Notes under the pieces: generated by a model
What the model saw: the letters and a program-made list of their open reading frames with translations, nothing else
The model's database searches: none
What the model was told of the DNA's origin: nothing
Made by a program: the position numbers and the translations under genes
DNA from: Rhodothermia bacterium
Lineage (GTDB): Bacteria > Bacteroidota > Rhodothermia > Rhodothermales > UBA10348
DNA length: 60,734 nucleotides
Direction: 5' to 3'
NCBI GenBank assembly: GCA_036985715.1
Contig: BTQE01000004.1
Span: 1 to 60,734, forward strand
Part shown: positions 15,507 to 60,734 of the stretch, in pieces
How the letters are laid out: the number at the start of each line of letters is the position of its first letter
How positions within the stretch are numbered: position 1 is the stretch's first letter

Positions 15507-15619
15507 TCTGTCCATTCTAAATCGGACTTGCTAATTAGGTCAAATTTCGTTCCATTGATAAAAACTCAGTCGTTATTAGAACGATTGGAGCCTGTTTTGT
15601 CTTATCAGGAACGAATCTC

Positions 15620-15712: not shown

Positions 15713-15835
15713 CCGACCGTCCCGTTCCGGAGCAAGCAACTCGCATTCTCCATTTCTTGTCCGGGTTGGTTTGGGGCTTGTACAGGCAGCGATTAACTTC
15801 GCGCTGCCTCATCACGATAGTCATCCATTCTTGCC

Positions 15836-16516
15836 ATGAAGTTTTTTGTCGATACCGCTGATCTTGGTGAAATCCAGGAAGCCAACGAGATGGGCGTGCT
15901 GGACGGTGTAACCACCAATCCATCCCTCATGCGAAAAGCGGGAGACTCCGATTTCCACGAACACATCCTGAAGATCTGTGAGATCGTAGACGGTGACGTA
16001 TCGGCAGAAGTGATCGCTACTGACTACGATGGAATCATCTCGGAGGCTCATACGCTTGCAAAGATTCACGACAACGTGGTCGTCAAAGTCCCCCTCATTC
16101 TCGATGGGATAAAGGCCGTTCGCTCGCTTTCCTCCGAAGGAATCAAAACAAACTGCACGCTGTGTTTCTCACCGAATCAAGCACTGATTGCGGCCAAGGC
16201 GGGCGCGACGTATGTAAGCCCGTTTGTGGGTCGTCTGGATGACATCTCGATGTCGGGCATGGATCTCGTTGAGCAGATTGTAACGATTTATTCGAACTAC
16301 GACTTTCAGACTCAGATACTGGTCGCGTCGATCCGTCATCCCCTGCACGTCGTAGAGTCGGCGCTAATGGGAGCTGACGTAGCCACGATGCCTTTGAAGG
16401 TGATCAAGCAACTGATCAAACACCCCTTGACGGACATCGGAATAGAACGCTTTATCAGTGACTGGAAAGCGTATCAGGCTGCTGCAGAAGCTGGATCAAA
16501 TGGTGTCGATGTATAA
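15836..16516 (+). CDS. tal: Fructose-6-phosphate aldolase / short (type 3B) transaldolase
   Basis: '[32 protein letters not shown]' and 'VVKVPL' (Schiff-base Lys region). 226 aa. Confidence 0.9.
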
Positions 16517-35657: not shown

Positions 35658-35730
35658 GGGGCTATAGCTCAGTTGGTAGAGTGCCTGGATCGCACCCAGG
35701 AGGTCAGGGGTTCGAATCCCCTTAGCTCCA
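35658..35730 (+). tRNA. tRNA-Ala (anticodon CGC)
   Basis: Cloverleaf folded by hand. Acceptor GGGGCTA/TAGCTCC with the G3:U70 Ala identity pair. D-arm GCTC-AGTTGGTA-GAGT. Anticodon stem CCTGG/CCAGG with loop A-T-CGC-A-C. T-arm AGGGG-TTCGAAT-CCCCT. CCA is not encoded. Confidence 0.9.
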
Positions 35731-35800
35731 CGACACAATCTTGGAACGTCGTATTCGCTATGAGCTAAGGCTTCTTCTTATTAGAGCGGAGACACTGGAT

Positions 35801-40159: not shown

Positions 40160-42222
40160 TCGTTCTCGCTGAACCCGCTTTTTTTTGAAAGTCGAAGCAG
40201 CCCCGACTCGTCTGCCATAAACTCCCAACCCGGTTCGACCAGAATGGTCGTGTCGGTCTGAAGGATAAGAGCCGGGCCTGTCATTGTCGTACCTGGTTTG
40301 AGATTGAATCGGTTCAGAACGGGGGTATCAATCGGCGCGGTGCGATCAAACCATATGGATCGGGATGAAGCGGATCGGGATGAAGCGGATCGGGATGAAA
40401 CCGGAGAATGCTCAACCGATGATGAACTGTTAGGAATCTGGATTTCGAATGATTCACTTGAAATACGCCCGGCAACCCTCAGCGTGACCAGTTCTATTCT
40501 GGCTTCTTTGAGACTGTATCCAAATTGCTTCTCATGTACACGATGAAAATCATTCTCCAGACGAGATAACGCTTCGTGGTCAGACGGGGCGTGTATATCC
40601 AAAATCAATTCGTGGCTCTGACCCTTGTAGCGCACGTCGGCCGACCACGTCAATGCGGCTTTCTGGCCTGAATTAAGAAAGTAGTCAGCGACTTCTGAGG
40701 CCAATGTTTCCCCCTTCTCAACGAAATTCGACGGGTCCTTTCTCAGATCCACCAACGACTCGAGGATGGACAAAGACCGTGTATACACAGCGTCAGTCAG
40801 ACAGAGACCTACGGCACTGAGGACGCCTGGATGGACAGCGAGGAGGATCTCCGGAATATTCAACGACGTGGCGAGGGCGCACGCGTGCAGCGGACCCGCA
40901 CCGCCGAAAGGTATCAGTGTAAAAATTCGCGGATCGTAGCCGCGTGCGACGGACACTTTTCTCAAAGCCCGTTCCATTGTCGAATTCGCAATCTGCAAAA
41001 TTCCGAGAGCCGTATCGGTCACGCTCAGCTTCAGGATTTCGCTGATCTCTCCGATTGCAGTTTCTGAGAGGTCCGGATTCAGATTCAGGCACTGACTTCC
41101 ACCGAACTGGTGTTCGGGAAGCATCCTCCCGACGACGAGATTGGCGTCGGTGACCGTGGGCCTTGTACCACCTAGACCATAGCATGCCGGGCCCGGCTGC
41201 GCACCTGCACTCTGTGGACCTACTCTCAATACACCGCCATCATCAACCCAGGCAATGCTACCGCCACCTGCCCCGACGGAATGTACATCTACGGCTGGGA
41301 ACCGGATGGGCGTGTCGCCGACAACGGTGTTCGGAGAAACCGGAATATGCCCCTCACAAAGACAGACGTCTGCACTGGTCCCACCCATATCAAGCGACAG
41401 AATGCGAATCGGATCTGGAAGTCCAGAACGCCGGCCGACATCAAAAGCGCCGATTACACCGGCAGCCGGACCACTCAACACGAGCTTGGCGGCTTCACGC
41501 GAGGCCGTTTTCAGGTCACTAAGACCTGCTCCAGAGTGCATGATTGAAATCGGACGATCACCGATTGAACTTGAAAGTTCTTCCAGGTAACGGCGAACGA
41601 CCGGACTCAGAAAGGCGTTGGCGACCGTCGTTGCCGTCCGCTCATATTCTCGATACTCGGGAAGAAGTTGACTGCTTGCCGAAATGTCCAACTCCGGCAG
41701 GGCAGCACGGAGTCGGGCCTCAATCTCCTGCTCGTGGTGATCGTTGGCGAATGAAAACAGAAGAGAAATCGCGACGCTTTCAGTTCCCGATTCAACCAGC
41801 CTTTCAATCAACTCATCGACGTCTTCGCTGCTCAATGGGAGGAGCGTTTCGCCAACAGCATTTGTTCGTTCCCGAACGCCGAATCTCAATTGAGCGGGTA
41901 CCATGGATTCGAGTCGACGCTGACTGAACTGATAGAGCTCGGGCCGCTGTTGTCGGGCGAGTTCGAGAACGTCTTCGAACCCAGCCGTTGAGACCAATGC
42001 CGTCACTGCTCCACGCCGTTCCAGGATCGCATTCGTTGCAATCGTTGTGCCGTGTACGATCGGGGCTTGTGATTCGGACTGGATCTGGTCCAGTCCAGTA
42101 CGGATACTAAGGCCTGGCTTTTCCCGATCGGTGGGGAGTTTGAGTATCTCGAGCTCCCCGTCGACGAGATACACGTAGTCTGTAAACGTACCACCGACAT
42201 CAATCCCGACTAACTTCGACAT
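40156..42222 (-). CDS. hyuA: Hydantoinase A / oxoprolinase family protein
   Basis: 'MSKLVGIDVGGTFTDYVYL' is the actin-like ATPase N-terminus. The start is ATG 42222; the track's upstream extension overlaps the response-regulator gene. Confidence 0.85.
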   Translation of the reverse strand: MSKLVGIDVGGTFTDYVYLVDGELEILKLPTDREKPGLSIRTGLDQIQSESQAPIVHGTTIATNAILERRGAVTALVSTAGFEDVLELARQQRPELYQFSQRRLESMVPAQLRFGVRERTNAVGETLLPLSSEDVDELIERLVESGTESVAISLLFSFANDHHEQEIEARLRAALPELDISASSQLLPEYREYERTATTVANAFLSPVVRRYLEELSSSIGDRPISIMHSGAGLSDLKTASREAAKLVLSGPAAGVIGAFDVGRRSGLPDPIRILSLDMGGTSADVCLCEGHIPVSPNTVVGDTPIRFPAVDVHSVGAGGGSIAWVDDGGVLRVGPQSAGAQPGPACYGLGGTRPTVTDANLVVGRMLPEHQFGGSQCLNLNPDLSETAIGEISEILKLSVTDTALGILQIANSTMERALRKVSVARGYDPRIFTLIPFGGAGPLHACALATSLNIPEILLAVHPGVLSAVGLCLTDAVYTRSLSILESLVDLRKDPSNFVEKGETLASEVADYFLNSGQKAALTWSADVRYKGQSHELILDIHAPSDHEALSRLENDFHRVHEKQFGYSLKEARIELVTLRVAGRISSESFEIQIPNSSSSVEHSPVSSRSASSRSASSRSIWFDRTAPIDTPVLNRFNLKPGTTMTGPALILQTDTTILVEPGWEFMADESGLLRLSKKSGFSENE
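40357..40401 (-). repeat. In-frame 3 x 15-bp tandem repeat in hyuA (encodes SSRSA-SSRSA-SSRS)
   Basis: 'GGATCGGGATGAAGC' is repeated at 40357, 40372 and 40387 on the plus strand. Confidence 0.9.
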
Positions 42223-42364
42223 CTCGACAAATTTCTTCAGTTCGATCTGCGAATATATTACACAGGTTTCTTGAAGCACCGCCGGAATCAATTCGGGCCC
42301 TGCACACCTCACTTCTGAAGGCGGAGAAAGAGTCGGTAATTCGTTCGGGAAAAGACTCTCGGGC

Positions 42365-43018
42365 CTAGCTGGAGGTCCGATCGCCGTCAATCTCAAGTGG
42401 AATAAGGCCGCGTTGGAGAGCAAATCGAATCATGTCCGCGTGATTCTTTACCTCCAGCTTTTTCATGATATTGGACCGATGCTTTTCAACCGTTCTGGCA
42501 CTGATCGAGAGTTTTTCCGAGATCTCGGCTGCGGACAAGCCTTCACCAACCAGCTGAAGTACCTCGCGTTCTCGAGCTGTAAGCAATTCGTAGCGGTCCG
42601 CAGGTATCGGATCTCGCTGAGAACGAGCTGCCAAGCCTGTGCTGATGAAACGTTTTCCACTCAGCGCACTTGCGATGGCGTCGTTCAGCTCCTTGATGTC
42701 TGAATTCTTGAGGACGTAGCCAAGCGCACCGTTTCGAAACGCGCGGGAGACATAAGAATCACTCGAATACATCGAGAGGACCACGACGACAGTGGAAGGG
42801 AAGTCTTGCTGAACACGCCGAGTTACTTCCAACCCGTCTAGACCGGGCATTCGAAGATCAGCAATGAGAACGTCGGGGCGATGTTCTTTTACGAGTTCCA
42901 GGGCAGTTGCACCGTCGCCACATTCGGCAACAACTTTGTGTTCGGTCGTCTGGGTCAGAAACGCGCGAATCCCTTCTCGAACGATAGGATGATCCTCAAC
43001 GAGGACAACGGTGGCCAT
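42365..43018 (-). CDS. NarL/LuxR-type two-component response regulator
   Basis: REC domain ('VLVEDHPIVREG...DVLIADLRMPGLDG') plus a LuxR HTH ('LTAREREVLQLVGEGLSAAEISEKLSISARTVEKHRSNIM'). Confidence 0.9.
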   Translation of the reverse strand: MATVVLVEDHPIVREGIRAFLTQTTEHKVVAECGDGATALELVKEHRPDVLIADLRMPGLDGLEVTRRVQQDFPSTVVVVLSMYSSDSYVSRAFRNGALGYVLKNSDIKELNDAIASALSGKRFISTGLAARSQRDPIPADRYELLTAREREVLQLVGEGLSAAEISEKLSISARTVEKHRSNIMKKLEVKNHADMIRFALQRGLIPLEIDGDRTSS

Positions 43019-43105
43019 TCCGATACCCGCAGGCGAAGTTTCGATAGTACTACCCGTTTATATAACGTAATTGCAGTTGATATCACGACATCGTTGTCGA
43101 ACATT

Positions 43106-45043
43106 CTATATGGGAAGCCGAGCTCGCATCGTTGTGCCTTTACCGGCAATACTTTCTATCTCGAGAGATCCACCCAATAGGACCGCTCTCTCTCTCATTC
43201 CATCCAGACCGATACTATCGGGTGGATTGCTGTTCGAGCCTACGGTACCAACTCCCTTGTCCGCGACGACAATCTCAAGCTCGCCATTCTGGCTCCTCAC
43301 GCTAACCGAAGCGGCCCGCACGAACGCGTGTCGGGCGACGTTGTTGAGCGCTTCTTGCGTAATTCGAAAAGCTGCAATCTGCAGTTCCTGGCGAATGCTT
43401 CCGTCGTCGTCCAGGTCTACATCTACATCGAGGGCTATGCCGTGCCGATCCTCGAATTCCCTGAAATGGGTCAATAGGGTCGAATGGAGTCCGAGCTGAT
43501 CCAGCGATGCAGGCCGTAACTGATGGGTAAAGTGATCTATCCGATCGATCAGCTGATCAACAAATCGCTCCGCTCGCACCACATTATCGTCGGGTTTGTC
43601 TGACAGCTGACTGATCATTTGCAATGCCAGTTGAATGGCGGTTAGAAGACCGCCCGCTTCGTCATGCAGATCCAGCGCGATTCTTCGGCGCTCTTCCTCC
43701 TGAACTGTTGAGAGGCGACGTGAAAGCCGAAGGAGTTGTTCATGAGCATGCTTCGTTTCCTCAAACAGCGTACTGAAACGCATTTCAGATTGCCGTAGGC
43801 TGTTAAGCATAAGATGATGATCCGTTATGTCAAGGACGGTTCCAAGTGCTTTCATTCCCGTGGCCTCATCTCCAAAGCGTTCGGCTTGGGAGAGCAAATA
43901 CCTGATGTCTCCGTCTGGCCGCACTATGCGAAACTGTATCTCGAACGGAATGCCGTCCTCATATAAGGATTTGAGCGCAGCTCCCACGTCTGGGACATCA
44001 TCGGGATGTACCAAGCGAATAAAATTGTCGGTAGACGGGATAAACGTTTCCGGTTCAACCCCGAGAATCTTCAAGGCCTGGTCGGAATACGTGGATTGTT
44101 CTTCAGACAGGTCTCTTTCCCAGTGCCCAATGTGGGCAATTCGCAACGCTTCTGACAGGGATCGTTGACTCTCAGACTGAACTTTTTCAATATCCGGGCG
44201 ATCAATTTTTCGGATAATGTAGAATGAGTAACCCTCTAGACTATCATCTGTAATAATCGGTTCAACTATCGCAACAAAAGGTGACGCCCCGATTCCGTTA
44301 GACGGATAGTTGAATTCGAATTTGTGAAAGAGCAACGGTTCCTCGACACGCTCAAGAATGGGTTTTAGGAAATCCTCTCTGAAGTACGGTGAAAATGAGA
44401 AGATCGAGTCGCCCACACGCACGCTCGGCGTGAGACTCGAAAATGCCAAGTTTACATGCGTAACCGTTCCCTCCGTGTCACAGAACGCGATGTATAGAGG
44501 AGACTTTAAACTCGAGGAACCCTTCTTCGCTTCTTCCCATCTAATAGACGACGCCTCAATCGATTTTCCATCCGTCACATCCTGCGTTGTCCCATAGCGT
44601 CTGGGTGATGCGCCATCTTCTCCGTCCTCTACTACCGCTTTGGTATGTAGGATTCGCACCGTACCGTCCGGGCGACGGATACGATACATAATGGAAAGTC
44701 CGACCATCTCCGCACCTTCCCTGCGAATATGGGTCTGTACGCGCGCCCGGTCTTCTTCAACCACCATGGCCATGATCGAACGAGTCGTTGGTATAAACGA
44801 ATTGGAATCCAAACCATGAATTCTATACGTCTCATCCGACCAGATTATTTCACCCGTTTCCAACACGAGCTCCCAGGTGCCGATTCCGGTCCGTGCCTGT
44901 GTTTTCGCAAGCTGCGATTGGGCATGGCGGAGGACTGCCAGAGCGTCATCGCGCTCTCGTGTTAACGTTGCCACCTCTTCGCGGTAGCGTTCGGTGAGAA
45001 TTGTTGCTTCTTCCAGTGAAGGAGTAGATTCTGGTGTCTTCAC
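43106..45043 (-). CDS. Multi-PAS sensor histidine kinase (HisKA_3 / HATPase_c)
   Basis: PAS-like repeats, H-box 'RRIALDLHDEAGGLLTA' and an ATPase C-terminus ('VADKGVG...GLDGMRERAVLLGGSLEIES'). GTG start. Confidence 0.85.
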   Translation of the reverse strand: MKTPESTPSLEEATILTERYREEVATLTRERDDALAVLRHAQSQLAKTQARTGIGTWELVLETGEIIWSDETYRIHGLDSNSFIPTTRSIMAMVVEEDRARVQTHIRREGAEMVGLSIMYRIRRPDGTVRILHTKAVVEDGEDGASPRRYGTTQDVTDGKSIEASSIRWEEAKKGSSSLKSPLYIAFCDTEGTVTHVNLAFSSLTPSVRVGDSIFSFSPYFREDFLKPILERVEEPLLFHKFEFNYPSNGIGASPFVAIVEPIITDDSLEGYSFYIIRKIDRPDIEKVQSESQRSLSEALRIAHIGHWERDLSEEQSTYSDQALKILGVEPETFIPSTDNFIRLVHPDDVPDVGAALKSLYEDGIPFEIQFRIVRPDGDIRYLLSQAERFGDEATGMKALGTVLDITDHHLMLNSLRQSEMRFSTLFEETKHAHEQLLRLSRRLSTVQEEERRRIALDLHDEAGGLLTAIQLALQMISQLSDKPDDNVVRAERFVDQLIDRIDHFTHQLRPASLDQLGLHSTLLTHFREFEDRHGIALDVDVDLDDDGSIRQELQIAAFRITQEALNNVARHAFVRAASVSVRSQNGELEIVVADKGVGTVGSNSNPPDSIGLDGMRERAVLLGGSLEIESIAGKGTTMRARLPI

Positions 45044-45388
45044 AGCGTCATCAGACTGGAAATGGGTGATAGTCGGGCACAGGAGTCGATACCTGAACAG
45101 GTCTGGTCCCGTGCAGTAAAATAAGCAAAACCAGGCGTTTCCGTTCGCTCGTTCTCGTGTCCGCTCCTGGGAAATAAACGCTCATCTAAATCGTCAAGAA
45201 CGATTCAGGGATGACGGGAAATGGTTAAATTATTTTCTTCTCGCGAATGCTCTCAATCCCACTTGATCCGACTATGACGCGTAATACGAGGATCTTCATC
45301 CTACAAATGGTATGATTTCTTGTGAGACAGAGGCTGGAGGTCTGATCCAGGCAGAATTTACTACCGAGCGAATATTCACATAGAAGCT

Positions 45389-46654
45389 ATGTCTCTCCGA
45401 TTATCGGACTCAGATCAGGCGGCTCTTGGAGGTGAAAATGGTCCTGGGGCATCCATGGCCATGTCCATCCTCGTTCGGATGGCTGAAGTGTACGGGGTTG
45501 ATGAACTCATGGATATCACCGCGGCTCATGTAGACTCTTCCATCTATATGGGCATTGCGACCATGGAGTATGCCGAGCGATTGGTTGATCTCGGGGCGCG
45601 AGTGTCCGTTCCTTCTACGCTGAATGTAACAGGAGTAGACGAATACGGCTGGCAGGATTGGGCCGTACCGAGGCAGCACGCCGAAAACGCGAAACGGCAA
45701 ATGATTGCCTATGAGGCGATGGGATGCATTCCCACGTGGACCTGCGCTCCGTATCAAACCGAGCACAGACCCGTTTTTGGCCAACAGATCGCTGCCGGTG
45801 AGTCCAACGCCATCTGTTTCTACAATTCGGTCATTGGTGCACGCACCGAGCGTTATCCAGATCTTCTGGACATCTGCGCTGCCATCACAGGACGTGTGCC
45901 GGCGACAGGCTTACACCTGGAAGAAAACCGCGCCGGTACCGCGCTGCTCAAGCTGATTGATATTCCGCTCGCTCTCCAGGATGATGATTCGTTTTATCCC
46001 GTCCTGGGCTATTTGGTCGGCGGACTCGAACCGGACGGCGTGCCTGTGATTACAGGTGTGGACGCCGAAGTTACCGAGGATAGACACAAAGCCATCTGTG
46101 CGGGGGCGTCTTCTGCGGGAGCGGTGGCGTTATATCATCTGGTGGGTAGTACTCCTGAGGCTGGGACGATAGAGCAGGCGTTTCATAACCGTGCCGTCGA
46201 AAAGACGACTGAAATTCGCATGATTCAACTCGTGGACGCGTACCGGCGCCTTACGACAGCGTCGAGCGACGCGCTGGATTTGGTTGTGCTCGGCAGTCCT
46301 CATTTTTCACTGGACGAGTTTCGAACACTTTCACCGTTGCTCGAGAACAGAGTCCGACATGCCGATGTGGATTTTCTTGTCACGTGCAGTCGTAGTGTCC
46401 GGATGATCGCGGACGAGCTTGGGCTGCTTGACTCATTAAAATCCTTCGGAGGACGGATTACGGTTGACACATGCCCGCTTGCTACACCCATGCTTCCCGA
46501 ACGAATTAGGAGCCTGATGACCAATTCAGCCAAGTACGCCTATTATTCGCCCGGTCTTTTGAATGCGGACGTCACGTATGGGAGCCTGCAGGATTGTGTA
46601 CGGTCCGCTCTCGAGGGCCGGGTCATCAGAGACGAGTCGCTATGGATGCAGTAA
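45389..46654 (+). CDS. Aconitase X catalytic subunit (DUF521)
   Basis: 'LSDSDQAALGGENGPGASMAMSILVRMAEVYGVDELMDITAAHVD' is a typical DUF521/AcnX large-subunit N-terminus. Confidence 0.75.
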   Translation: MSLRLSDSDQAALGGENGPGASMAMSILVRMAEVYGVDELMDITAAHVDSSIYMGIATMEYAERLVDLGARVSVPSTLNVTGVDEYGWQDWAVPRQHAENAKRQMIAYEAMGCIPTWTCAPYQTEHRPVFGQQIAAGESNAICFYNSVIGARTERYPDLLDICAAITGRVPATGLHLEENRAGTALLKLIDIPLALQDDDSFYPVLGYLVGGLEPDGVPVITGVDAEVTEDRHKAICAGASSAGAVALYHLVGSTPEAGTIEQAFHNRAVEKTTEIRMIQLVDAYRRLTTASSDALDLVVLGSPHFSLDEFRTLSPLLENRVRHADVDFLVTCSRSVRMIADELGLLDSLKSFGGRITVDTCPLATPMLPERIRSLMTNSAKYAYYSPGLLNADVTYGSLQDCVRSALEGRVIRDESLWMQ

Positions 46655-53563: not shown

Positions 53564-53722
53564 ATGAGTAACACATACGACGCGATACTAATCGGCGGCG
53601 GCATTATGGGATGCTGCACTGCCCACGAATTGGGTCAGCGCGGATTAAGCGTCGCCGTCGTGGAGAAAGGACGTATCGGCGAAGGGCCGACGGGCGATTA
53701 AGCAGCCATCATTCGTCAATGA
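53564..53722 (+). pseudogene. Stub of an FAD-dependent (DAO-family) oxidoreductase: N-terminal Rossmann motif only, with in-frame stops
   Basis: 'MSNTYDAILIGGGIMGCCTAHELGQRGLSVAVVEKGRIGEGPTGD*AAIIRQ*'. This shows the GxGxxG dinucleotide fold and then TAA (53699-53701) and TGA (53720-53722). I could not follow any continuation in any frame. Confidence 0.6.
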
Positions 53723-53912
53723 TAGTCGAATCGCTATTCGATGCTCCCGAATCAGGGGTTTGTTGCGGTACGTGTACACTGATTGAGGGTCCCAGTGCAG
53801 CGGCTGGATATTGTTCAGCATGGGCTGCCCGGCCGAGCTAGTCAGGTTTCGCTACTCTTAATAACTCGCGGGAGACACTTTCGCGTCGCGGTTCGGAGAT
53901 GATGATACGCGC

Positions 53913-54887
53913 TTATACGGCGGACTTCTTGGCGTCTTCGATGAACCCGAGGGTCAGCCAGTCGGCGATGAATTGACGATTATCCCACTGGATAATTCGG
54001 AGTTGGTCGCCTTTATGGTTAATATTTCCCAATTCAATCAAAGCAGTGACGGGAACTGTATTGCGCAGCATGTACAGGTAAGAGCCTTTCTTCAGACGGC
54101 CGCGGTATCCGCGATCGGGTCGGATTAGGCTATACTGCTGACCGATCGTTTTTCGCAGTGTCTTCGCCAGTTCAAGGCCCTGTCGGGAGTTATAGTAGAA
54201 ATCGACATCTACCTGTTTCGTACTCCTGTAGGAGTCAACATGCAGCTCAACAACACGTTGAAGGCGGGCATTGCGGTGCCTGGCTGCAAGGCGATTGATG
54301 TCTTTTACACGCTGGCGGAGACGATCGCGTTGGCTGTTGCCAATGTATTTTCCTCCGAGATGCTTCTCGTCGTGATCAGCCGGGAAGTATTCCAGGTTAC
54401 GGATTCCTTCGTCGTCGCGATTCAGAATGTAGACCGTCGCTCCCTCGGCGATCAGTCCGCGCGCTAGGCGGAGGGAAACGTCATAGGCGTACTCATCTTC
54501 ATATAGAAACTTACCGTTCCGCCTGCCGATAGCTCCAGGATCTCGACCACCGTGGCCACCCAGGATGTAGTAAACAACACCTTTCAAGGTGTTGCTTTTA
54601 ATGGTAACCGTCTTGAATTCGTCCCCGAAAATTTCGTAGGTCTTGGTCACCACGGTAGAGGGGAGGCTGTAGGCAACGCCTCTTCGGAGGCCAGAGCCGT
54701 TGATCAACTTATCGGCATTCAAATCTCTAAATTCGGCTAAAACGGCCTTTGTAGGTGTGATTCCGTTTCTGGATAGCAGTCGGAAAATGCCCTCGCCTCG
54801 CTCTGGAAAATCTGTTTGAGATTGAGCAGTAGCGACGGTCGAAAAAGCGAGCAGAATGAAGAAAAATGGGATGTGCCTGAATCTCAT
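53913..54887 (-). CDS. N-acetylmuramoyl-L-alanine amidase (Amidase_3 family), secreted
   Basis: Signal peptide, 'ILGGHGGRDPGAIG' and 'ELGNINH' motifs. Confidence 0.8.
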   Translation of the reverse strand: MRFRHIPFFFILLAFSTVATAQSQTDFPERGEGIFRLLSRNGITPTKAVLAEFRDLNADKLINGSGLRRGVAYSLPSTVVTKTYEIFGDEFKTVTIKSNTLKGVVYYILGGHGGRDPGAIGRRNGKFLYEDEYAYDVSLRLARGLIAEGATVYILNRDDEGIRNLEYFPADHDEKHLGGKYIGNSQRDRLRQRVKDINRLAARHRNARLQRVVELHVDSYRSTKQVDVDFYYNSRQGLELAKTLRKTIGQQYSLIRPDRGYRGRLKKGSYLYMLRNTVPVTALIELGNINHKGDQLRIIQWDNRQFIADWLTLGFIEDAKKSAV

Positions 54888-54891
54888 GCCC

Positions 54892-54899
54892 GGGGGGGG
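54892..54899. repeat. G8 (C8 on the coding strand) homopolymer 4 nt upstream of the amidase start codon
   Basis: 'catgcc-cGGGGGGGGt' read directly from the sequence. Confidence 0.9.
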
Positions 54900-55095
54900 T
54901 CAGCTGAACGGGTGTCGGAAATTTAATACTATTATCGACGGACTCTCGCGAAAATCAAACGTTTAGGATGTAAAATCTTCGGGTCATTGTAAATTGGGAA
55001 ATCTATCGATCCCAAATGGGACTTCATCTTTAGTAGGCTACGTTCAATATCCAAGATCACGTGGTCTCTTTTCGGAAATCCACCGTCTATTACGA

Positions 55096-55311
55096 ATGTC
55101 AGTACAGTCTGCCCTTGATTTTGTGGGAAAGGTCCGCGAGGACAAAAGCTTAAGCGAAAAAGTTCGTGAGCTCGCAACGGATACAGAACTTCAAGCGGTA
55201 GTTGATCTTGCTCGGAGAGAAGGATATTCGATTTCGGAAGGTGATCTTCGTGAGGCCTTCAAGCATGACTGGGCCATGCGATGGTTCAGACACACAGGGT
55301 CGTCAAGTTGA
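55096..55311 (+). CDS. Nif11-domain small protein (possible Nif11-type RiPP leader/precursor)
   Basis: The 71-aa 'MSVQSALDFVGKVREDKSLSEKVRELATDTELQAVVDLARREGYSISEGDLREAF-KHDWAMRWFRHTGSSS' fits the Nif11 pattern (M-S..F..KV..D..L..K.....vv.lA.e.Gy.i). The track ORF starts 34 codons too early. Confidence 0.65.
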   Translation: MSVQSALDFVGKVREDKSLSEKVRELATDTELQAVVDLARREGYSISEGDLREAFKHDWAMRWFRHTGSSS

Positions 55312-56400
55312 CGGACGGAAATCGTGCTGGGTTGGAGTCGGAGATACCCAGGAGTGAAGAAATCCGAGATAGGCTTTTGCTTCTGGCCGACGATCTTGAT
55401 TCAGATTTACTTTCACGTGGTTTAATGTTCGAGCAAACACTCCAAACTGATTCCACTTCTTCGTCAGAGATTCCAGCAGTAACGCACTCGGCCATTTTTC
55501 CTGCACATTTGGCGGACCGATATGCCCTGGCCAATCGAGAAGCATCTGACCTTTTTTCTCGTCACAGTGGCCGAGTTCGATGAGCCGCTGCAACAGATGT
55601 TTCCACCGGTCTCTTACATTTGGCCCATCACTAATGAAGTACTCGAGACCGATTTGAGGATAAATCACGGGACCGACGTCTAGATCGATGCGAATATCGT
55701 CGCAGCATATTTTTCCAACGCTGATCAACTCAGCACACTCATCCGAATTCCCGGTCCACTCTATCCGCTCCAGAAAAGGAAGAATGTTGTCGGCATGAAT
55801 CCGTTGGATGTTCACTCTTAGAGCGTCCATGGTTCGAGAAAGCATAATGCCGACATGAAGCAGCCGGGCGCCGTTGGGAAGTGAGCGGAAACACGATTTC
55901 AGATTTTTGAATACGTATTCAGAAAGAGGTGCTCCGTGAAGTCGACGTACGATCGTTTCGATGATCGCTGGACTCTTCTCAGCACTGAATGAGGACGGAC
56001 TTATCCCGATGAACAGGGACGGAAGAGCAGAGTCCAATGTGTCGTCAAGGTCATATTCCAGCCACAGTTCATCAATATGGTCGTGAATAAGTGAGGAAGG
56101 ATCCGTCCAGTCGGCACAATAAGATTTAAGTCTGTGCCAGGCCTCGTTATCGAAAGCAGGGCCATTGGCGCGAGATAAATACTCTGAAAATATCCTGTCC
56201 TCTCCTTCCTTTTGGAGTATAGCTTGAAAAAAATCGACGCGATCATTCTTCGGGTCCAATCGACATTCAAATCCAAGGCGGGAAACGTCTCCAAAATGGG
56301 CTGCGGCGGCGAAGAGCTTTTCTACCGATTCGTCGGAAAAAATAGGACCGTGTAGGTGCGGCCTCAGAATCTCTAGTGAGTCACGAATCAGAGCAGACAT
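55303..56400 (-). CDS. Orphan 365-aa protein, function unknown (speculative: ABBA-fold prenyltransferase-like)
   Basis: Clean ORF with no cofactor motif I recognise. It has five spaced beta-hairpin-like segments: 'LGFECRLDPKNDRVDFF', 'LWLEYDLDD..LFIGIS', 'LLHVGIMLSRTMDALRVNIQRI', 'IRIDLDVGPVIYPQIGLEYFI' and 'VKVNLNQDRRPEAKAYLGF'. Confidence 0.7.
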   Translation of the reverse strand: MSALIRDSLEILRPHLHGPIFSDESVEKLFAAAAHFGDVSRLGFECRLDPKNDRVDFFQAILQKEGEDRIFSEYLSRANGPAFDNEAWHRLKSYCADWTDPSSLIHDHIDELWLEYDLDDTLDSALPSLFIGISPSSFSAEKSPAIIETIVRRLHGAPLSEYVFKNLKSCFRSLPNGARLLHVGIMLSRTMDALRVNIQRIHADNILPFLERIEWTGNSDECAELISVGKICCDDIRIDLDVGPVIYPQIGLEYFISDGPNVRDRWKHLLQRLIELGHCDEKKGQMLLDWPGHIGPPNVQEKWPSALLLESLTKKWNQFGVFARTLNHVKVNLNQDRRPEAKAYLGFLHSWVSPTPTQHDFRPST

Positions 56401-56758
56401 GAGGTCGTGCGAATTTATCTCTGCAAGAGGAGCAAATACCTAAAATCGATAATGCTGAAGCAAGGACAATCGAGTCGATAGAGATGTTTCAGAAATCTAA
56501 TTTACGGTTCAAGTCCAGAAGCTGTTATCGGAGAGAGATAACGAGCGAACTTGTTTCACGGCCCGAATCACTCAGGCTTCGGATTCTCGAAAAATCGACC
56601 TGTCGTGGGTATAGAAAACCGTGGATCTACTCTACGAAGAGTAATTCCTGACGACGGAAAAGACTTTGATGCAACCTGGTCCCTGAACTGGAACTCTACA
56701 GGGCGTGCGAGCTTATCGATGTTTCGGTAGGATGTAGTCGGAAATTCGTTTTCTGTAC

Positions 56759-56941
56759 TTATCCAGAAAAATCGTTCTTACCGTTCCGATCCCCTTGATG
56801 AAAATCCCAATTCCAGTTTCCTAGGTCACCCCAGCTACCGGCACCGGAAAAATTCGTGATGTTTCCTACACGAGTGATTTGTTCGATATTCCCGTACGCC
56901 TGCAACTTTGGGCTACTGTATTTCTTCTTCATATTTTCCAT
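56759..56941 (-). CDS. Candidate RiPP precursor peptide (lasso-type leader motif, W/N/G/D-rich core)
   Basis: 'MENMKKKYSSPKLQAYGNIEQITR|VGNITNFSGAGSWGDLGNWNWDFHQGDRNGKNDFSG'. Y8-x2-P11-x-L13-x3-G17-x5-T23-x matches YxxPxLx3Gx5Tx exactly. AGGAG lies 3 nt upstream of the ATG, and the gene sits 291 bp downstream of a PqqD-like ORF. Confidence 0.6.
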   Translation of the reverse strand: MENMKKKYSSPKLQAYGNIEQITRVGNITNFSGAGSWGDLGNWNWDFHQGDRNGKNDFSG

Positions 56942-57232
56942 TCTCTCCTAATCAGATCAAAGCTATTTAAACGGTCAGATGCAGTAAAACACCTGGTGTG
57001 AGGGAATAATCCATAACGAAATGGGGGCTGCTCATCTGGGATTTTCAGTCCGATGCATGCACACATACACGTGGGTATATACGAATACGTTAAAAATCGG
57101 CCGAATCGTGAGCGGAAGTGCTATTTCCAATCCATGAACGCGCGGTGTAGCAATAAATTTTTCGAATTGCTACCCACTAATGACCCAGACTGCCATCTTG
57201 GCAGTAATAATCCACCTGTCTAGAGCCGTCGA

Positions 57233-57544
57233 TTATTCTGTCTCAGGAAGGGTTATGACTCGAATTAGGCCTCCCTCAGAGAGAGAGTCCAAAAAGGACC
57301 GTACATCTTTTTCAAGCCGTTCCGATTCGACGTCAAACTTTTCAAACAGTAAATCAAAGGAATATTAAATTGTGAGCTGGGTCGTCAATGCGTTCCACAT
57401 TTCAGCACCCACATCATCCAGCCCGAAATATGTACCGTCATTCATATTATAGAGAACGTACTCGTCGCCGATCTTCTGCGAGAGCACATTCTCAGCAACT
57501 GATACTTTCAGATTGAACAGAGAGTCCATCAGAATCATTGTCAT
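57233..57544 (-). pseudogene. PqqD-family / RiPP recognition element (RRE) ORF interrupted by an in-frame TAA (57365-57367)
   Basis: Hand translation gives 'MTMILMDSLFNLKVSVAENVLSQKIGDEYVLYNMNDGTYFGLDDVGAEMWNALTTQLTI*YSFDLLFEKFDVESERLEKDVRSFLDSLSEGGLIRVITLPETE*'. Both halves together fit the PqqD pattern (..de.vl.n...g.y..Ln..g..iW..l ... y.v....l..Dv..fl..L...GLi). Each half is under 60 aa, so neither appears in the ORF track. Confidence 0.65.
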
Positions 57545-57781
57545 TTCGAGAAAAAATCTTGTCGGTTCAGCAAAGGGCAGAATGTCTCCAGTCCTTCAAT
57601 TACGAAAAATAATTTGAAAAACGGGTTCCTTTGGCGAACAGATTCGACTCCGGATAAGCCTCCAGGGCATAGTTTTTGAGAAACAGAGGTTCACCGAGCG
57701 ACGACGAATCTACGCGGATTAGTAAGACGGCGTACCCGATCCCACGATGCATCAACGCACACGACAAATTTAAACCTACAG

Positions 57782-59629
57782 ATGAAACAGGTTGGGACGA
57801 TCTCGGGAATTGTTGCGTCGAACGCTGAAACGCGGCCGAATGGGAACGCAGTACTTTCTCTCAAAAGCCATGCCCTGACGTACGAAGCACTGTTCGAACA
57901 CATTTCGGACACCGTAAGTGCACTAAACGCAATTGGCCTAACCCGAAATGATCGGCTAGCAGTTGTTCTTCCAAATGGACCCGAAATGGCCACTGCGTTT
58001 TGTGCTATTTCATCCGGATTTTCCTGTGCCCCGCTGAATCCATCATTCCAGGCAACCGAATTTGACTTCTATCTGTCCGACCTAAAAGCGAAAGCAGTAA
58101 TCGTACAGGCCGGATTCGACTCTCCGGTGCGCGACGTCGCAACGAGATTGGGCGTGTCCGTACTCGAACTTCATCCAGAATCGTCCCGTTCAGGTCTTTT
58201 TTCCTTGAGTCACGAAATCGAAACACTCAAGAAACGCGATCCTCCCGATTTTGCTGGACCATTAGACGAAGCTCTCGTTCTGCATACTTCGGGTACTACA
58301 TCTCGACCCAAATTAGTACCGCTTTCGCACGGAAACCTGGTTGCCTCGGCTGTAAATATATCCGAATCACTGGCGCTATCTGATCGAGACATATGCATGA
58401 ATGTGATGCCACTTTTTCACATTCACGGATTGATGGCATGCGTTCTGGCATCGTTTCAATCTGGCGCCAGCGTTGTCTGTACGCCAGGATTCTCTGCACC
58501 GTCATTTCTAGAGCAGCTTTCGAGGACCGGTGCTACGTGGTACAGCGCTGTTCCCACGATGCATCAGGCCATCGTTGGACGGGTTCAAGCTAATCCGTCT
58601 TCGACCAACGCAATCAATCTTCGATTTATTCGATCGTCTTCTGCTTCGCTTCCTCCTACGGTTATGAGTGACCTCGAGCAGGCATTCGGGGTTCCTGTGA
58701 TAGAATCATACGGGATGACCGAAGCGTCCCATCAGATGGCTAGTAACCCATTACCTCCACTTCAGCGGAAGCCAGGCACGGTCGGTCTCGCAGCAGGTCC
58801 CGAAGTGTCTGTCATGGATGAAGACGGTGTCATTGTAGGGGCCGATCAGGTTGGGGAGATCGTCATTCGAGGCAATAATGTGACAGTAGGATACGCGGGG
58901 AATCCCCAGGCAAATGCAGCGGCATTTACAAACGGTTGGTTTCGCACAGGGGATCAGGGATATCTGGATGAAGATGGGTATCTAACGATCACAGGTCGAC
59001 TGAAAGAGATTATCAATCGAGGCGGCGAGAAGATTTCTCCGAGGGAGATCGACGAGGTGCTGCTGGCGCATCCGTCTGTTCGTCAGGCCGTTACTTTTGC
59101 ATTACCAGATCAGAACACGGGTGAGGAAGTTGCTGCTGCGGTAGTTCTTGAGGCGGGTAACAAAGTTGGTGAGCGAGAACTTCAGGATTTCGTCGCGGAA
59201 AGACTGGTCGACTTCAAGATTCCTCGCCGGGTTGTTTTTCTAGATGAGATTCCCAAAGGACCAACTGGAAAGCTGAGGAGGATCGGCCTCTCGGATCAGC
59301 TAGATATTCGGGGCGAACTTCCGCGCGAAAGTTTAAACGTCCGAGTAGGGGACACCGGAGATCCCGATACTGACACGGAGAAAGCTATGATAGCGATCTG
59401 GAAAAACGTGCTGAAGCTCGAACAAATCGGCCTGGATGACAGCTATCTGAGTCTGGGCGGTGATTCGATCCTTGTCGCACAGATACTTAATCGCGTAGAA
59501 AGCGTACTAGGAGTTCGACTATCGATCATTGATTTTTTTGGTTTGGCGACTGTTCGGAGGCTCTCAAAAAGAGTCGATGAGATCGCAAACGACGCCCGTG
59601 ATTCTGCTCAAACTGAGCTGGTCTCCTAG
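57782..59629 (+). CDS. ANL-superfamily adenylating enzyme fused to a phosphopantetheine carrier domain (A-T didomain)
   Basis: 'LHTSGTTSRPK', 'YGMTE', 'WFRTGD', 'GRLKEIINRGGEKISPREID' and 'PKGPTGKLRR', then the carrier motif 'LSLGGDSILVAQIL'. The N-terminal half resembles oxalate/medium-chain acyl-CoA ligase-type enzymes. Confidence 0.85.
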   Translation: MKQVGTISGIVASNAETRPNGNAVLSLKSHALTYEALFEHISDTVSALNAIGLTRNDRLAVVLPNGPEMATAFCAISSGFSCAPLNPSFQATEFDFYLSDLKAKAVIVQAGFDSPVRDVATRLGVSVLELHPESSRSGLFSLSHEIETLKKRDPPDFAGPLDEALVLHTSGTTSRPKLVPLSHGNLVASAVNISESLALSDRDICMNVMPLFHIHGLMACVLASFQSGASVVCTPGFSAPSFLEQLSRTGATWYSAVPTMHQAIVGRVQANPSSTNAINLRFIRSSSASLPPTVMSDLEQAFGVPVIESYGMTEASHQMASNPLPPLQRKPGTVGLAAGPEVSVMDEDGVIVGADQVGEIVIRGNNVTVGYAGNPQANAAAFTNGWFRTGDQGYLDEDGYLTITGRLKEIINRGGEKISPREIDEVLLAHPSVRQAVTFALPDQNTGEEVAAAVVLEAGNKVGERELQDFVAERLVDFKIPRRVVFLDEIPKGPTGKLRRIGLSDQLDIRGELPRESLNVRVGDTGDPDTDTEKAMIAIWKNVLKLEQIGLDDSYLSLGGDSILVAQILNRVESVLGVRLSIIDFFGLATVRRLSKRVDEIANDARDSAQTELVS

Positions 59630-59870
59630 CGGAGAGTCCGCGTGCTCAATCTGTCATCCCTTTTCGCGCGAATCGACTGATTTAAGTCGTTTATTGTATT
59701 TAATTAGCTTTTACTCGACCGGCGATTCACCGCTTTGGTACTCCTCGTCCCGGACACTCAGAGGAGGCACAGTCTTTGAACGTCACAGCCTTCACATCCT
59801 GTATTTAATACTTTGGGCAGTGTAGTCGGATCTTTTATACGACGAAAGGCAATCCAGGACCAATCGAATA

Positions 59871-60734
59871 ATGAACGAAGCTTCCATTCCCGGTATTATC
59901 AAGACGCATGCGGAACAGAGGCCGGATAATCTGGCCATCCTGTCGATCAACAGAGCACCGATGACGTATGGCCGCCTTCAGAGGCAGACGTCAGCCGTCG
60001 TTGGTATTCTGAACGGGCTAAACACAGGGAGAGGAGACCGCGTTGCAGTTGTTGTTCCGAGCGGTCCCGAGATGGCAACGGCATTTCTGACTATCTCTTC
60101 GGGAGCCACTTCCGTACCACTGAATCCGGCGCTTAAACGGTCTGAGTTCGATTCATATCTCTCCGATCTTGACACCAGAGTAGTGGTCATTCAGTCTGGA
60201 TTTGATTCGCCAATTCGAGACGTCGCGAAGGAGCGAAATATTCCAATATTGGATCTAATTCCCGACGCTGGTATTTCTGGTGTTTTCGAGTTGATGCTAA
60301 ATGGAGAGATACTTTCGTCGGAGAATTCGGCCCCTAGAGTTTATTCGAAGCCCGAGGACGTCGCCATGATCCTCTACACATCGGGCACGACCGCTCAGCC
60401 GAAGAGAGTGCCAATAGGGCACTTCCATTTATACAAGTCTGCGGAAGCGAGGATTCAGATATTGTCGCTCAGTGAAAAGGATCGCTGCCTGAACGTGATG
60501 CCGTATTTTCATGCTCACGCCCTCAGAACTTGTGTCCTGACCACTATAAAGGCAGGAGGAAGCGTGTTTTGTACAAACGGATTTTCACCTTCTTCATTTT
60601 TCGAAATCCTGGCGTTGTCGCAGGCTTCTTGGTATAGCGCGGTGCCAACCATTTTTATGACCATTCTGGCGCGAGCGGCAAATTCAGAGATGGTCGAAAA
60701 GCACCCGCACCTCAGATTTATTCGGTCAACCTCA
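59871..60734 (+). CDS. Second, paralogous ANL adenylating enzyme (3' end beyond the window)
   Basis: Not in the track because it has no stop codon. ATG 59871 stays open for 288 codons to the window edge. 'MNEASIPGIIKTHAEQRPDN...VVVPSGPEMATAFLTISSGATSVPLNPALKRSEFDSYLSDL...ILYTSGTTAQPK...' is collinear with 57782..59629. Confidence 0.8.
   Translation, partial: MNEASIPGIIKTHAEQRPDNLAILSINRAPMTYGRLQRQTSAVVGILNGLNTGRGDRVAVVVPSGPEMATAFLTISSGATSVPLNPALKRSEFDSYLSDLDTRVVVIQSGFDSPIRDVAKERNIPILDLIPDAGISGVFELMLNGEILSSENSAPRVYSKPEDVAMILYTSGTTAQPKRVPIGHFHLYKSAEARIQILSLSEKDRCLNVMPYFHAHALRTCVLTTIKAGGSVFCTNGFSPSSFFEILALSQASWYSAVPTIFMTILARAANSEMVEKHPHLRFIRSTS

Follow-up and report, generated by a model that had tools for sequence, protein, structure and literature searches.

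Introduction

The closest characterised relative of the enzyme described here is MppC from Moorena producens, a leader-dependent lanthipeptide prenyltransferase which geranylates Trp at C5, needs a Nif11 leader in cis and did not accept a substrate whose leader was supplied in trans (Wakeel, McShan & Agarwal, JACS 2025; PMC12715784). In the published SSN, 87 of about 250 MppC-type members stand next to PF07862 ORFs (PMC12715784), and the mpp gene list is available (PMC11791876). Actinobacteria make Trp-prenylated lasso peptides, collinodin among them (Harris et al., 2024, Biochemistry; Shi et al., 2025, ACS Catal), with a full lasso machinery, and the prenyl group is reported to be attached after threading and independently of the leader, according to the accounts in PMC13352647 and PMC12715784. 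Fusions of a prenyltransferase with a terpene cyclase, such as NctPC, are also described as acting on RiPPs (Hubrich et al., 2024, Chem, as presented in PMC13290415).

Here, we compare with these systems a locus at the end of a 60,734-nucleotide stretch of DNA (the window, by which we mean the whole stretch analysed). Like mpp, it encodes a protein, X, homologous to the gene in the mppC position (32% identity, E 2.6e-46) and with the same ABBA barrel fold, alongside a Nif11-domain peptide with a W..RW-like motif (ACWRWSG in the MppE core, HDWAMRW in the window). It differs from mpp in having a lasso-type precursor and an RRE instead of LanM, in a Nif11 partner without acidic linker, Gly-Gly site or separate core, and in the position of X within a separate, lasso-associated group of a neighbour-joining (NJ) tree. 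With the actinobacterial prenylated lassos it shares a lasso-type precursor accompanied by a prenyltransferase, Trp being the likely target.

Results

All ORFs listed in a first-pass annotation of this region were found again at their coordinates, and the region from 55.1 to 60.7 kb is best explained as two units, a RiPP cassette (Unit 1, B1-A-X-Nif11, 55.1-57.5 kb) and a pair of ANL paralogues (Unit 2, 57.8-60.7 kb, probably an NRPS-type acyl-loading unit), with the following features:

53564-53701, plus strand: FAD-dependent oxidoreductase stub, 45-aa N-terminus (Pfam DAO)
53913-54887, minus strand: N-acetylmuramoyl-L-alanine amidase (Pfam Amidase_3)
55096-55311, plus strand: stand-alone 71-aa Nif11-domain protein (PF07862, TIGR03798)
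55303-56400, minus strand: X, 365-aa ABBA-fold protein of the MppC peptide prenyltransferase family (AF2, Foldseek, hhalign)
56759-56941, minus strand: A, 60-aa lasso-type precursor peptide (NF033528 near cutoff, strong SD)
57233-57544, minus strand: B1, lasso-type PqqD/RRE leader-binding protein, interrupted (Pfam PqqD)
57545-57781: B1-ANL spacer, 237 bp
57782-59629, plus strand: ANL-carrier fusion, acyl-AMP ligase plus PCP (AMP-binding, AMP-binding_C, PP-binding)
59871-60734, plus strand: second ANL gene, 288 codons, cut by the window end (AMP-binding, E 3e-40)

Unit 1 is compact and low in GC (43-49% for Nif11, X, A, B1 and their spacers, vs 52.2 +/- 2.0% for the remaining window), while both ANL genes lie at the window background (50-51%; 0.51 for the ANL-carrier gene), so that the AT-richness ascribed earlier to the whole block holds for the cassette and not for the ANL genes. 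The intergenic gaps measured 237, 291 and 358 bp, in agreement with the range of 237-358 bp given before, and the shortest is the spacer said to separate the RRE gene from the divergent ANL gene. The decayed gene reported beside the block is the oxidoreductase stub, at which synteny with the close relative L044 (82% nucleotide identity) stops, at about 53732 by blastn. The amidase also lies in synteny beside the cassettes of L010 and L044; no amidase match was found in L040.

Protein X had been described as an orphan without assignable motif. It indeed matched nothing in Pfam or NCBIfam, and a search with its sequence profile found no match among PDB chains; the fold comparison alone succeeded. 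The AF2 model (pLDDT 89.6, pTM 0.89) has five alpha-alpha-beta-beta repeats, and ABBA prenyltransferases made up all of the top 50 Foldseek matches in the PDB, with TM about 0.5, the best being bacterial 5-/6-DMATS (E 6.5e-7). The X profile aligned by hhalign with a 375-aa Moorena gene (locus L039) at probability 100 and E 3.8e-62, and blastp gave 31.8% identity over 314 aa (E 2.6e-46). This Moorena gene adjoins LanM and a homologue 87% identical to MppE, and it would correspond to mppC, judging from where it stands in the locus of another Moorena strain and from the genes listed for mpp. By fold and homology, X is a member of the MppC-type family of RiPP ABBA prenyltransferases. The earlier suggestion of a chemistry outside the known classes is thereby lost, since this family was characterised in 2025, and the accompanying side guess of Trp modification by the 365-aa protein fits the assignment well. 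The family comprises about 4,500 representative clusters and has no Pfam or NCBIfam model, and its members are therefore called 'hypothetical' by automatic annotation; the apparent orphan reflects a gap in profile libraries, and neither a new fold nor a new chemistry. Some members reach about 710 aa through a C-terminal domain resembling squalene-hopene cyclases and match the published PT-cyclase architecture of NctPC, a likeness of architecture and not of sequence, whereas X of the window is a stand-alone PT domain.

The 17 invariant columns of X all map to the predicted barrel strands or beside them, alternately spaced, including the pairs E115/D117, G184/M186, G251/E253, H328/K330 and K342/Y344; the invariant R189, R195 and D241 are likewise placed by the model on or next to strands. 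MppC W336/F340 may correspond to W303/L307 of X, a tentative match which assumes a numbering offset of 21 residues; the W...F pattern sought in the Moorena orthologue was absent, and W-P-S-x-L was used instead. A radical-SAM reading of X was rejected, the HemW match at E 0.21 being noise.

The 60-aa peptide A is preceded by a strong SD (AGGAGA) and scored 32.4 bits against the NCBIfam model lasso_cyano NF033528, 0.6 under the cutoff of 33. Its leader motif, Y8-S-S-P11...G17...T23, is of the YxxP...G...T type, which bears out the RRE-binding leader recognised earlier at 56941-56759, and A has no Nif11 leader. Orthologues were found in L010, L044, L040 and L043, and the ORF is conserved as coding, as had been presumed: dN/dS is 0.23-0.24 (P=0.005 against neutrality) and nucleotide identity 89%, vs 66% in the adjacent spacer. 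The leader is the most conserved section (dN/dS 0.09). The core holds an invariant motif, SG[AS]GSWG[DE], whose Trp is present in all four A peptides of the window clade and in none of 12 cyanobacterial lasso precursors. The first Asp after T23-R lies at core position 15, vs positions 7-9 for the acidic residue of a lasso ring; GAGSWGD (G..D/E, spacing 7) and FSGAGSWGD after T29-N (spacing 9) are possible alternative rings, both non-canonical.

B1 was listed at first as an open PqqD/RRE frame at 57544-57233, which it is not: an in-frame TAA interrupts codon 60 (57367-57365), and the Pfam PqqD match (E 2.7e-14) runs across the stop and covers both halves, the best NCBIfam match being lasso_PqqD_Bac. 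The same stop occurs in the Logan assembly of run DRR500112, the only other assembly with these genes, which shows 3 SNPs vs the window over 12.9 kb and ends 81 bp short of the window end. Both L044 and L043 have CAG at this codon. The B1 gene of L043 is whole, with 102 aa, and that of L044 bears its own +1 T insertion close to codon 62; the breaks of B1 in the window and in L044 are separate events. Reinitiation downstream of the stop was considered and discarded, since more than 20 codons follow in which the frame offers no ATG, GTG or TTG. Compared with L044, dN/dS of B1 is 0.14 for the N-terminal part and 0.32 for the C-terminal part. With its RRE interrupted, this strain has probably lost leader-guided delivery or retains it in impaired form.

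The Nif11 gene converges on X with a 9-bp overlap, exactly as first noted. Its product matches PF07862 (E 6e-10) and TIGR03798 (39 bits, cutoff 32.3), the latter over profile positions 1-51 of 68 only. It is conserved over its whole length among the homologues compared, including the 20-residue tail, which contains AFKHDWAMRWF and displays the motif A[HF][KR][HQ]DWxMR; neither a GG/GA cleavage site nor an acidic linker is present. In a single-sequence AF2 model the protein forms five helices, the tail being helix 58-66 (pLDDT 56-71).

Relatives of X occur in two settings, namely cyanobacterial lasso clusters (15 loci) and lanthipeptide clusters with NHLP or Nif11 precursors plus LanM (12 loci). 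In the former, the order is cyclase, precursor, kinase, X, methyltransferase and P450, followed by a convergent Nif11 gene, B2 and B1, as exemplified by Oscillatoria sp. PCC 10802 (L012) among about 15 loci. A (with its lasso_cyano leader), B1, X and the convergent Nif11 gene of the window are homologous to their counterparts there. Precursor homologues were detected by tblastn at the expected position in 9 of the cyanobacterial lasso loci, and of the 15 lasso-type loci with contigs long enough to show it, 14 have a Nif11 homologue convergent with the X operon at its end. The NJ tree (without bootstrap support) divides the X sequences according to context and puts the window clade on the lasso side; this is also the group to which X is nearest, at a mean identity of 34%. 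Many precursor cores of the lanthipeptide type carry Trp, several as the last residue, and others end in Tyr.

By comparison with the cyanobacterial lasso clusters, the window has no cyclase, B2, HPr-kinase-like kinase, methyltransferase or P450, and the core of its precursor has gained a Trp, cyanobacterial cores having none and ending in Y-x-S. Throughout the 60.7 kb, tblastn with 4 cyclases at E<=0.01 and the same searches for B2 found nothing, nor was any kinase, methyltransferase or P450 found. Remnants of cyclase, kinase or B2 were also sought in the spacers. A marginal match in the B1-ANL spacer (57545-57781) to residues 528-580 of the L006 cyclase, whose E of 0.002 comes from a very small search space, was dismissed as chance because 13 further cyclases gave nothing consistent there. 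Where the contigs of L040, L043, L044 and L010 span a B1-A or an A-X junction, no cyclase or kinase gene lies in it, and no leader protease or exporter was found near the cassette. The annotation was right that enzymes of the known RRE-dependent classes are missing (no cyclase, B2 protease, rSAM or YcaO). The cluster type it presented as undescribed is another matter: the enzyme family is known and the parent lasso + X + Nif11 type is common in cyanobacteria, the window cassette being a reduced form of it. We found no description of this parent type, with its kinase, methyltransferase and P450, in the literature searched.

A, X, Nif11 and B1 are under purifying selection. For A, X and Nif11, dN/dS is 0.2-0.4 (0.21-0.24 for X, 0.41 for Nif11), significantly below 1, with spacers at 63-66% identity, and each of these three genes is intact in every lineage where it was seen. 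The part-orders on the short contigs of relatives (L010, L044, L040/L043) fit B1-A-X-Nif11 and are kept at 58% X identity. The proposal that the listed genes act together is supported for the RRE, precursor, X and Nif11 genes, which form a conserved unit, and finds no comparative support for the ANL pair.

The two ANL genes are indeed paralogous (46% identity over 285 aa), the first fused to a carrier domain and the second cut by the window edge. The best NCBIfam match of the ANL-carrier gene is FadD7-like, and its homologues, at about 55% identity, number more than 8,000 in many phyla, often with a TE domain; in L038 such a gene precedes a C-A-PCP-TE NRPS and a PPTase. Among about 40 X-family loci, the pair was seen only in L044, whose close relationship makes this shared synteny say little, and the dS of the ANL genes differs from that of the cassette. 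No GNAT, condensation or similar acyltransferase domain was found in the ORFs of 53.5-60.7 kb. From these sequence comparisons, the pair looks like a separate NRPS-type acyl-loading unit, probably outside the cassette, and the acyl or aminoacyl transfer onto a peptide imagined for it is not supported. Such a lipid transfer is the chemistry of selidamides, nostolysamides and lipolanthines, which use GNAT-type or related transferases, none of which is present at the cassette.

Discussion

From a mechanistic point of view, the modelled fold and the homology to MppC suggest that the most likely activity of X is prenyl transfer to a Trp in a ribosomal peptide encoded next to it. The fuller reading that we prefer, tentatively and at slightly less than an even chance when taken as a whole, is a lasso-derived cassette in which X prenylates the Trp of A, the Nif11 protein docks onto X and the ANL pair is separate. 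The cassette would descend from the cyanobacterial lasso + prenyltransferase type by loss of the cyclase, B2, kinase, methyltransferase and P450, and the window copy alone cannot make a threaded lasso. On the barrel strands of X, invariant Arg, Lys, Tyr and His may bind the prenyl diphosphate, with Mg2+ probably held by invariant Asp/Glu, and the allyl cation would then pass to an aromatic side chain in the ribosomal peptide encoded alongside, the invariant Trp of A (GSWG[D/E]) being the more likely target. The 71-aa Nif11 protein would act as a stand-alone, leader-like docking partner, filling the site of X that lanthipeptide-type relatives use for their cis Nif11 leader. As MppC refuses a substrate with its leader in trans, such a trans-acting partner is without biochemical precedent. 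The broken B1 of both close strains, together with the constrained leader of A, finds no explanation here unless an unlinked factor still reads that leader.

If the cassette is active, an MppC-type prenyltransferase can couple to lasso-type peptides, in a family so far shown to act only on lanthipeptides via a cis Nif11 leader, and a stand-alone Nif11 domain can replace the leader. This bears on the evolutionary re-targeting of leader-dependent RiPP enzymes and may be of use for engineered site-specific peptide prenylation; the comparison also brings to light a widespread cyanobacterial lasso cluster type with kinase, X, methyltransferase, P450 and Nif11. A bolder version, which we consider rather unlikely, is a cyclase-less RiPP system where the lasso leader is re-used for a linear Trp-prenylated peptide and a leader-only Nif11 protein is an obligatory subunit of X in trans. 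Were it true, evolution would here have moved a RiPP leader into a gene separate from its peptide, and the conserved 70-aa Nif11 genes of cyanobacterial lasso clusters would be accounted for as well.

As it has an invariant Trp itself, the Nif11 protein is a rival substrate. X and Nif11 would then be a minimal RiPP system of two genes, X prenylating the Trp (HDW) just past the domain and A and B1 being leftovers of the lasso pathway, a reading which we rate as improbable although it fares best among the alternatives. MppC is indeed Trp-specific and requires a Nif11 leader in cis, X-Nif11 is the most constant pairing (14/15 lasso-type loci plus the window clade), and cyanobacterial lasso precursors lack Trp where their Nif11 proteins have an invariant DW. 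Moreover, X and Nif11 are intact while B1 is broken in two strains, and the X gene of Azospirillum, which has no lasso genes around it, follows an ORF with a weak Nif11 likeness and the ending ...ESWF.... However, true precursors have an acidic disordered linker, an L(X)4L motif and a Gly-Gly site, all of which the Nif11 protein lacks, the Trp lies about 7 residues past the Pfam-defined domain end vs about 27 in MppE, and the whole-length conservation resembles that of a folded protein rather than of a leader with a variable core. Selection on A and B1 and the grouping of lasso-associated X in the NJ tree would also go unexplained.

Lasso clusters are normally compact, and this weighs on a split pathway with the cyclase and B2, perhaps also another B1, elsewhere in the genome and a Trp-prenylated lasso as the product. 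The strong constraint on the lasso-like leader of A, its two possible ring motifs and the freedom of a redundant local B1 to decay would be in line with such a split, and Trp-prenylated lasso peptides are known (PMC13352647). Against it, a cyclase and B2 are absent from the 60.7 kb, neither cyclase nor kinase occupies the cassette junctions covered in the four relatives, and the canonical Thr at -2 precedes none of the candidate rings, which makes this reading clearly less probable than the preceding one.

The missing essential lasso genes, the two independent B1 inactivations, the low GC and the truncated gene adjoining the block could also denote what is left of a lasso cluster acquired horizontally, now decaying and without function; we hold this to be very unlikely, given the intact A, X and Nif11, their dN/dS beside far more diverged spacers, and the part-orders kept at 58% X identity. 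A single six-gene pathway, in which the ribosomal peptide receives an acyl or aminoacyl group loaded by the ANL-carrier enzymes, appears more doubtful still: the divergent arrangement with B1 across 237 bp in the window and L044, and an ANL-PCP-hexapeptide-transferase fusion inside an NHLP + X + LanM cluster at two Nostoc loci, are outweighed by the absence of the pair from other X-family loci, its background GC and distinct dS, the ubiquity of a family which elsewhere feeds small NRPS, and the lack of any GNAT, condensation or other transferase before the window end.

As regards non-coding features, a promoter and terminator scan gave sites no commoner than in shuffled sequence, and Rfam, tRNA and repeat scans of 53-60.7 kb returned no matches. 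The domain content of the window points no more than faintly to a member of the FCB group, through its FlgD_ig/T9SS-like, DUF5916+CBM9 and Omp85 domains.

Gene content of the cassette

Our analysis showed the first-pass annotation to be largely correct in what it had observed. The coordinates of all its open reading frames were confirmed, with the exception that the PqqD/RRE frame had been read as open and is in fact interrupted by a stop codon.

Genes of the cassette (B1, A, X, Nif11) and adjoining adenylating-enzyme (ANL) genes
55096-55311, plus strand: Nif11-domain protein of 71 aa, above the Pfam and TIGR03798 thresholds
56400-55303, minus strand: X, ORF of 365 aa, without Pfam or NCBIfam match
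56941-56759, minus strand: A, lasso-type precursor peptide of 60 aa; strong Shine-Dalgarno; NCBIfam lasso_cyano 32.4 bits (cutoff 33)
57544-57233, minus strand: B1, PqqD/RRE (leader-binding) frame; PqqD profile covers both halves; in-frame TAA at codon 60
57782-59629, plus strand: first ANL gene; AMP-binding, AMP-binding_C and PP-binding domains
From 59871, cut by the window end, plus strand: second ANL gene, 46% identical to the first

The Nif11 gene shares 9 bp with the 3' end of X. The block had also been described as AT-rich, which holds for Nif11, X, A, B1 and the spacers (43-49% GC, vs 52.2 +/- 2.0% in the remaining window) and fails for the ANL genes, which have background GC. Elsewhere in the window, a lone tRNA-Ala (CGC) lies at 35658-35731, and hydantoinase A and B (oxoprolinase-like), a PAS histidine kinase, aconitase X and a canonical aconitase occupy 38570-46654; these genes are an ordinary metabolic context, unrelated to the cassette.

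Fold and family of the X protein

A word-indexed search returned 17 relatives of X, all without names or domains, and a confident AlphaFold2 model built on their alignment (pLDDT 89.6, pTM 0.89) consisted of five alpha-alpha-beta-beta units. In a Foldseek comparison with the PDB, the top 50 matches were all ABBA aromatic prenyltransferases, the best being the bacterial 5-/6-dimethylallyl-tryptophan synthases PriB, IptA and CymD (E values as low as 6.5e-7, TM ~0.5, identity 11-14%). The 17 invariant alignment columns all lie on or beside predicted barrel strands; they include R189, R195, D241 and the alternately spaced pairs E115/D117, G184/M186, G251/E253, H328/K330 and K342/Y344, a pattern that would be expected of lumen-facing residues in the modeled barrel.

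MppC is an ABBA-type prenyltransferase from a Moorena producens lanthipeptide cluster, which geranylates C5 of Trp82 in the MppE core ACWRWSG and requires a Nif11-type leader attached in cis; its UniProt relatives co-localize with LanM (76), Nif11 ORFs (87) and NHLP peptides (9) (Wakeel, McShan, Agarwal, JACS 2025, PMC12715784). In an mpp-like locus retrieved via an MppE homologue, the sole candidate prenyltransferase was a 375-aa gene adjoining the precursor, without Pfam match, in agreement with the published mpp gene list (PMC11791876). This gene matched both the X profile (hhalign probability 100, E 3.8e-62) and X of the window itself (31.8% identity over 314 residues, E 2.6e-46), and it is on these sequence matches that X is assigned to the MppC family, a relationship undetectable by Pfam or by sequence search of PDB chains. 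The earlier guess that the 365-aa protein modifies Trp fits these findings. The proposal of chemistry outside known classes is unsupported, given that both the enzyme family and the prenylation of peptide Trp are already known.

An exhaustive profile search collected 4,507 representative clusters (E<=1e-3), and the X family is therefore large; it has merely no model in the libraries. Squalene-hopene-cyclase-like domains are joined to X in members of ~710 aa, and other fusion partners are 2OG-Fe(II) oxygenase, N-terminal sulfotransferase, methyltransferase and FAD_binding_4 domains (the cyclase-like, 2OG-Fe(II), sulfotransferase and FAD_binding_4 fusions are among P0147, P0152, P0165, P0201, P0283 and P0221). 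The terpene-cyclase fusions lend independent support to prenyl chemistry. In P0144 and P0151, an N-terminal half of ~370 aa outside assigned domains is joined to X.

Genomic contexts of X relatives

Examination of 42 loci revealed two main types. In the first (~15 loci, nearly all cyanobacterial), X belongs to a complete lasso cluster comprising the Asn-synthetase-like cyclase, precursor, HPr-kinase-like kinase, X, a SAM methyltransferase and a P450, with a 68-75-aa Nif11 protein, the transglutaminase-like leader protease B2 and B1 on the opposite strand. Wherever genes were called in such loci (three cases), those for the kinase and X overlap. The Nif11 gene was found in 14 of the 15 loci whose contigs cover that position, and its product is conserved over its full length, including the tail A[HF][KR][HQ]DWxMR. 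In the second type (~12 loci, including MppC), NHLP or Nif11 precursors accompany X and LanM. A neighbor-joining tree, calculated without bootstrap, split X sequences by context and placed the window clade with the lasso-associated type. None of 12 cyanobacterial lasso precursors contains Trp, and all but two have a Y-x-S ending; many cores of the second type contain Trp, in several cases as the final residue, and others end in Tyr.

Several loci depart from these arrangements. In Oscillatoria sp. PCC 10802 and Roseofilum (L012, L020), a second set of cyclase, kinase, B2 and B1 directly adjoins the X-containing cluster, and these genomes therefore carry tandem lasso clusters. Another lasso cluster (L006, 6110-13498), with PqqD, cyclase and a 59-aa Gly-rich precursor, has a short X homologue (288 aa) together with a FAD monooxygenase and an NTP_transf_5 protein, the latter two in place of the methyltransferase and P450; no Nif11 gene was detected in this cluster. 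The X match falls into two pieces separated by ~130-145 bp in a Nodularia MAG (L029, 10001-11230) and a Prochloron didemni scaffold (L034, 10001-11139), pointing to a frameshift, an insertion or a pseudogene. In Azospirillum cavernae (L007, 8507-11089), a 135-aa ORF lies directly before X, the stop of the one overlapping the start of the other; this ORF contains a Nif11-like domain below threshold and ends in ...ESWFRD.... A 349-aa protein without family also lies upstream; lasso or lanthipeptide genes were absent near X, and this locus, from a cultured organism, may represent a third type of context.

Trp-prenylated lasso peptides are known from actinobacteria (PMC13352647). In the literature searched, no description of the cyanobacterial cluster type combining lasso genes, X and Nif11 was found; this type appears undescribed, as does its cyclase-less four-gene derivative in a non-cyanobacterial-looking genome.

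Conservation of the reduced cassette

When all full-cluster proteins were searched against the window by tblastn, only the Nif11 and PqqD genes were matched; cyclase, B2, kinase, methyltransferase and P450 were absent from the 60.7 kb, in line with the absence of a lasso cyclase noted at first, and the cassette spacers held no reproducible remnants of lost lasso genes. This reduced cassette is not a one-off deletion, because several relatives share its gene order. L010 and L044, both ~82-83% identical to the window in nucleotides, have the cassette order; in a far more distant lineage (L040, L043; X identity 58-62%), L040 has A, X and Nif11 side by side, and in L043 an intact 102-aa B1 is followed by A and X.

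Conservation of the cassette (nucleotide identity vs L010/L044; dN/dS)
X: 92%; 0.21-0.24
A: 89%; 0.23-0.24 (P=0.005 vs neutrality), leader 0.09
B1: 88.5%; 0.14 (N-part), 0.32 (C-part)
Nif11: 88%; 0.41
Spacers X-A and B1-ANL: 63-66%

The leader YSSP...AYG.IE.ITRVG is common to all four A peptides of the window clade, as is the core motif SG[AS]GSWG[DE] with its invariant Trp. Within the block at 53913-57544, dS vs L044 varied sharply, at 1.25 for the amidase and 0.20-0.33 for the cassette genes B1, A, X and Nif11, against 0.44 for the adjoining ANL-carrier gene; the two lineages may have exchanged the cassette more recently than its flanks. Synteny with L044 stops at ~53732, beside a 45-aa stub of a FAD-dependent oxidoreductase (53564-53701), in place of which L044 has a HiPIP-like gene after the amidase, and 53564-53732 resembles the edge of a rearrangement or an insertion.

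The TAA of B1 is also present in a Logan assembly three SNPs from the window. The corresponding codon is CAG (Gln) in L044 and L043, and B1 of L044 carries one extra base in a T-run two codons past this site, so that the two lesions are independent events. Apart from them, B1 bears the marks of earlier purifying selection; it therefore appears that B1 was lost recently in the window/L044 sub-clade, or that both lesions reflect polymorphism or errors of assembly. As sequenced, the window has no functional RRE.

Proposed activity and substrate

The fold and family of X, its contexts, the selection on the cassette and the absence of lasso machinery are established by this analysis. From these, X would bind a prenyl diphosphate via its invariant basic and Tyr residues and Mg2+, and would alkylate an aromatic side chain of a neighboring ribosomal peptide. 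We tentatively favor A as this peptide, with slightly less than even confidence, because selection has maintained it despite the loss of all other lasso genes, because the invariant Trp was gained in exactly the window clade, because parent clusters place X in a precursor-kinase-X operon, and because lasso-associated X sequences cluster in the tree. The Nif11 protein, which lacks a Gly-Gly site, an acidic linker and a variable core and whose tail is predicted to form a helix, would then be a leader-like partner filling the site on X where a leader docks.

A rival reading, in which X modifies the Nif11 protein, seems rather unlikely. It is suggested by the cis-leader requirement of MppC, by the invariant Trp of this protein and by the pairing of X with Nif11, the most constant of all, which reaches the Azospirillum locus devoid of lasso genes, if only with a sub-threshold Nif11 match there. 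We consider improbable a split lasso pathway whose cyclase and B2 are unlinked. Very improbable is a dead remnant, as the B1 lesions might indicate, in view of the selection on A, X and Nif11.

ANL genes

Acylation by the ANL genes, as first modeled, is the least probable explanation, and their role as pathway partners is unsupported. The ANL-carrier fusion has >8,000 homologues (E<=1e-50), ~55% identical across Armatimonadota, Chloroflexota, Cyanobacteria, Acidobacteriota and others, many with an extra thioesterase domain; in an Armatimonadota genome, it is followed by a C-A-PCP-TE NRPS module and a PPTase. Adjacency to B1 is common only to the window and its close relative L044, the pair being absent from the other X-family loci examined. 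Considering this wide family, the NRPS context elsewhere, the background GC, a dS (0.44) differing from that of the cassette, and the absence of a visible acyl-to-peptide transferase nearby, we conclude that the ANL genes are a separate NRPS-type loading unit.

Acyl chemistry beside X is not unheard of, since two Nostoc loci of the LanM-associated type (L033, 14138-18135; L023, ~14282-15973) encode a 1,234-aa fusion of AMP-binding, PP-binding and hexapeptide-repeat transferase domains. This fusion sits within the cluster of NHLP precursor, X and LanM, and might provide carrier-dependent acylation in a pathway to a prenylated lanthipeptide.
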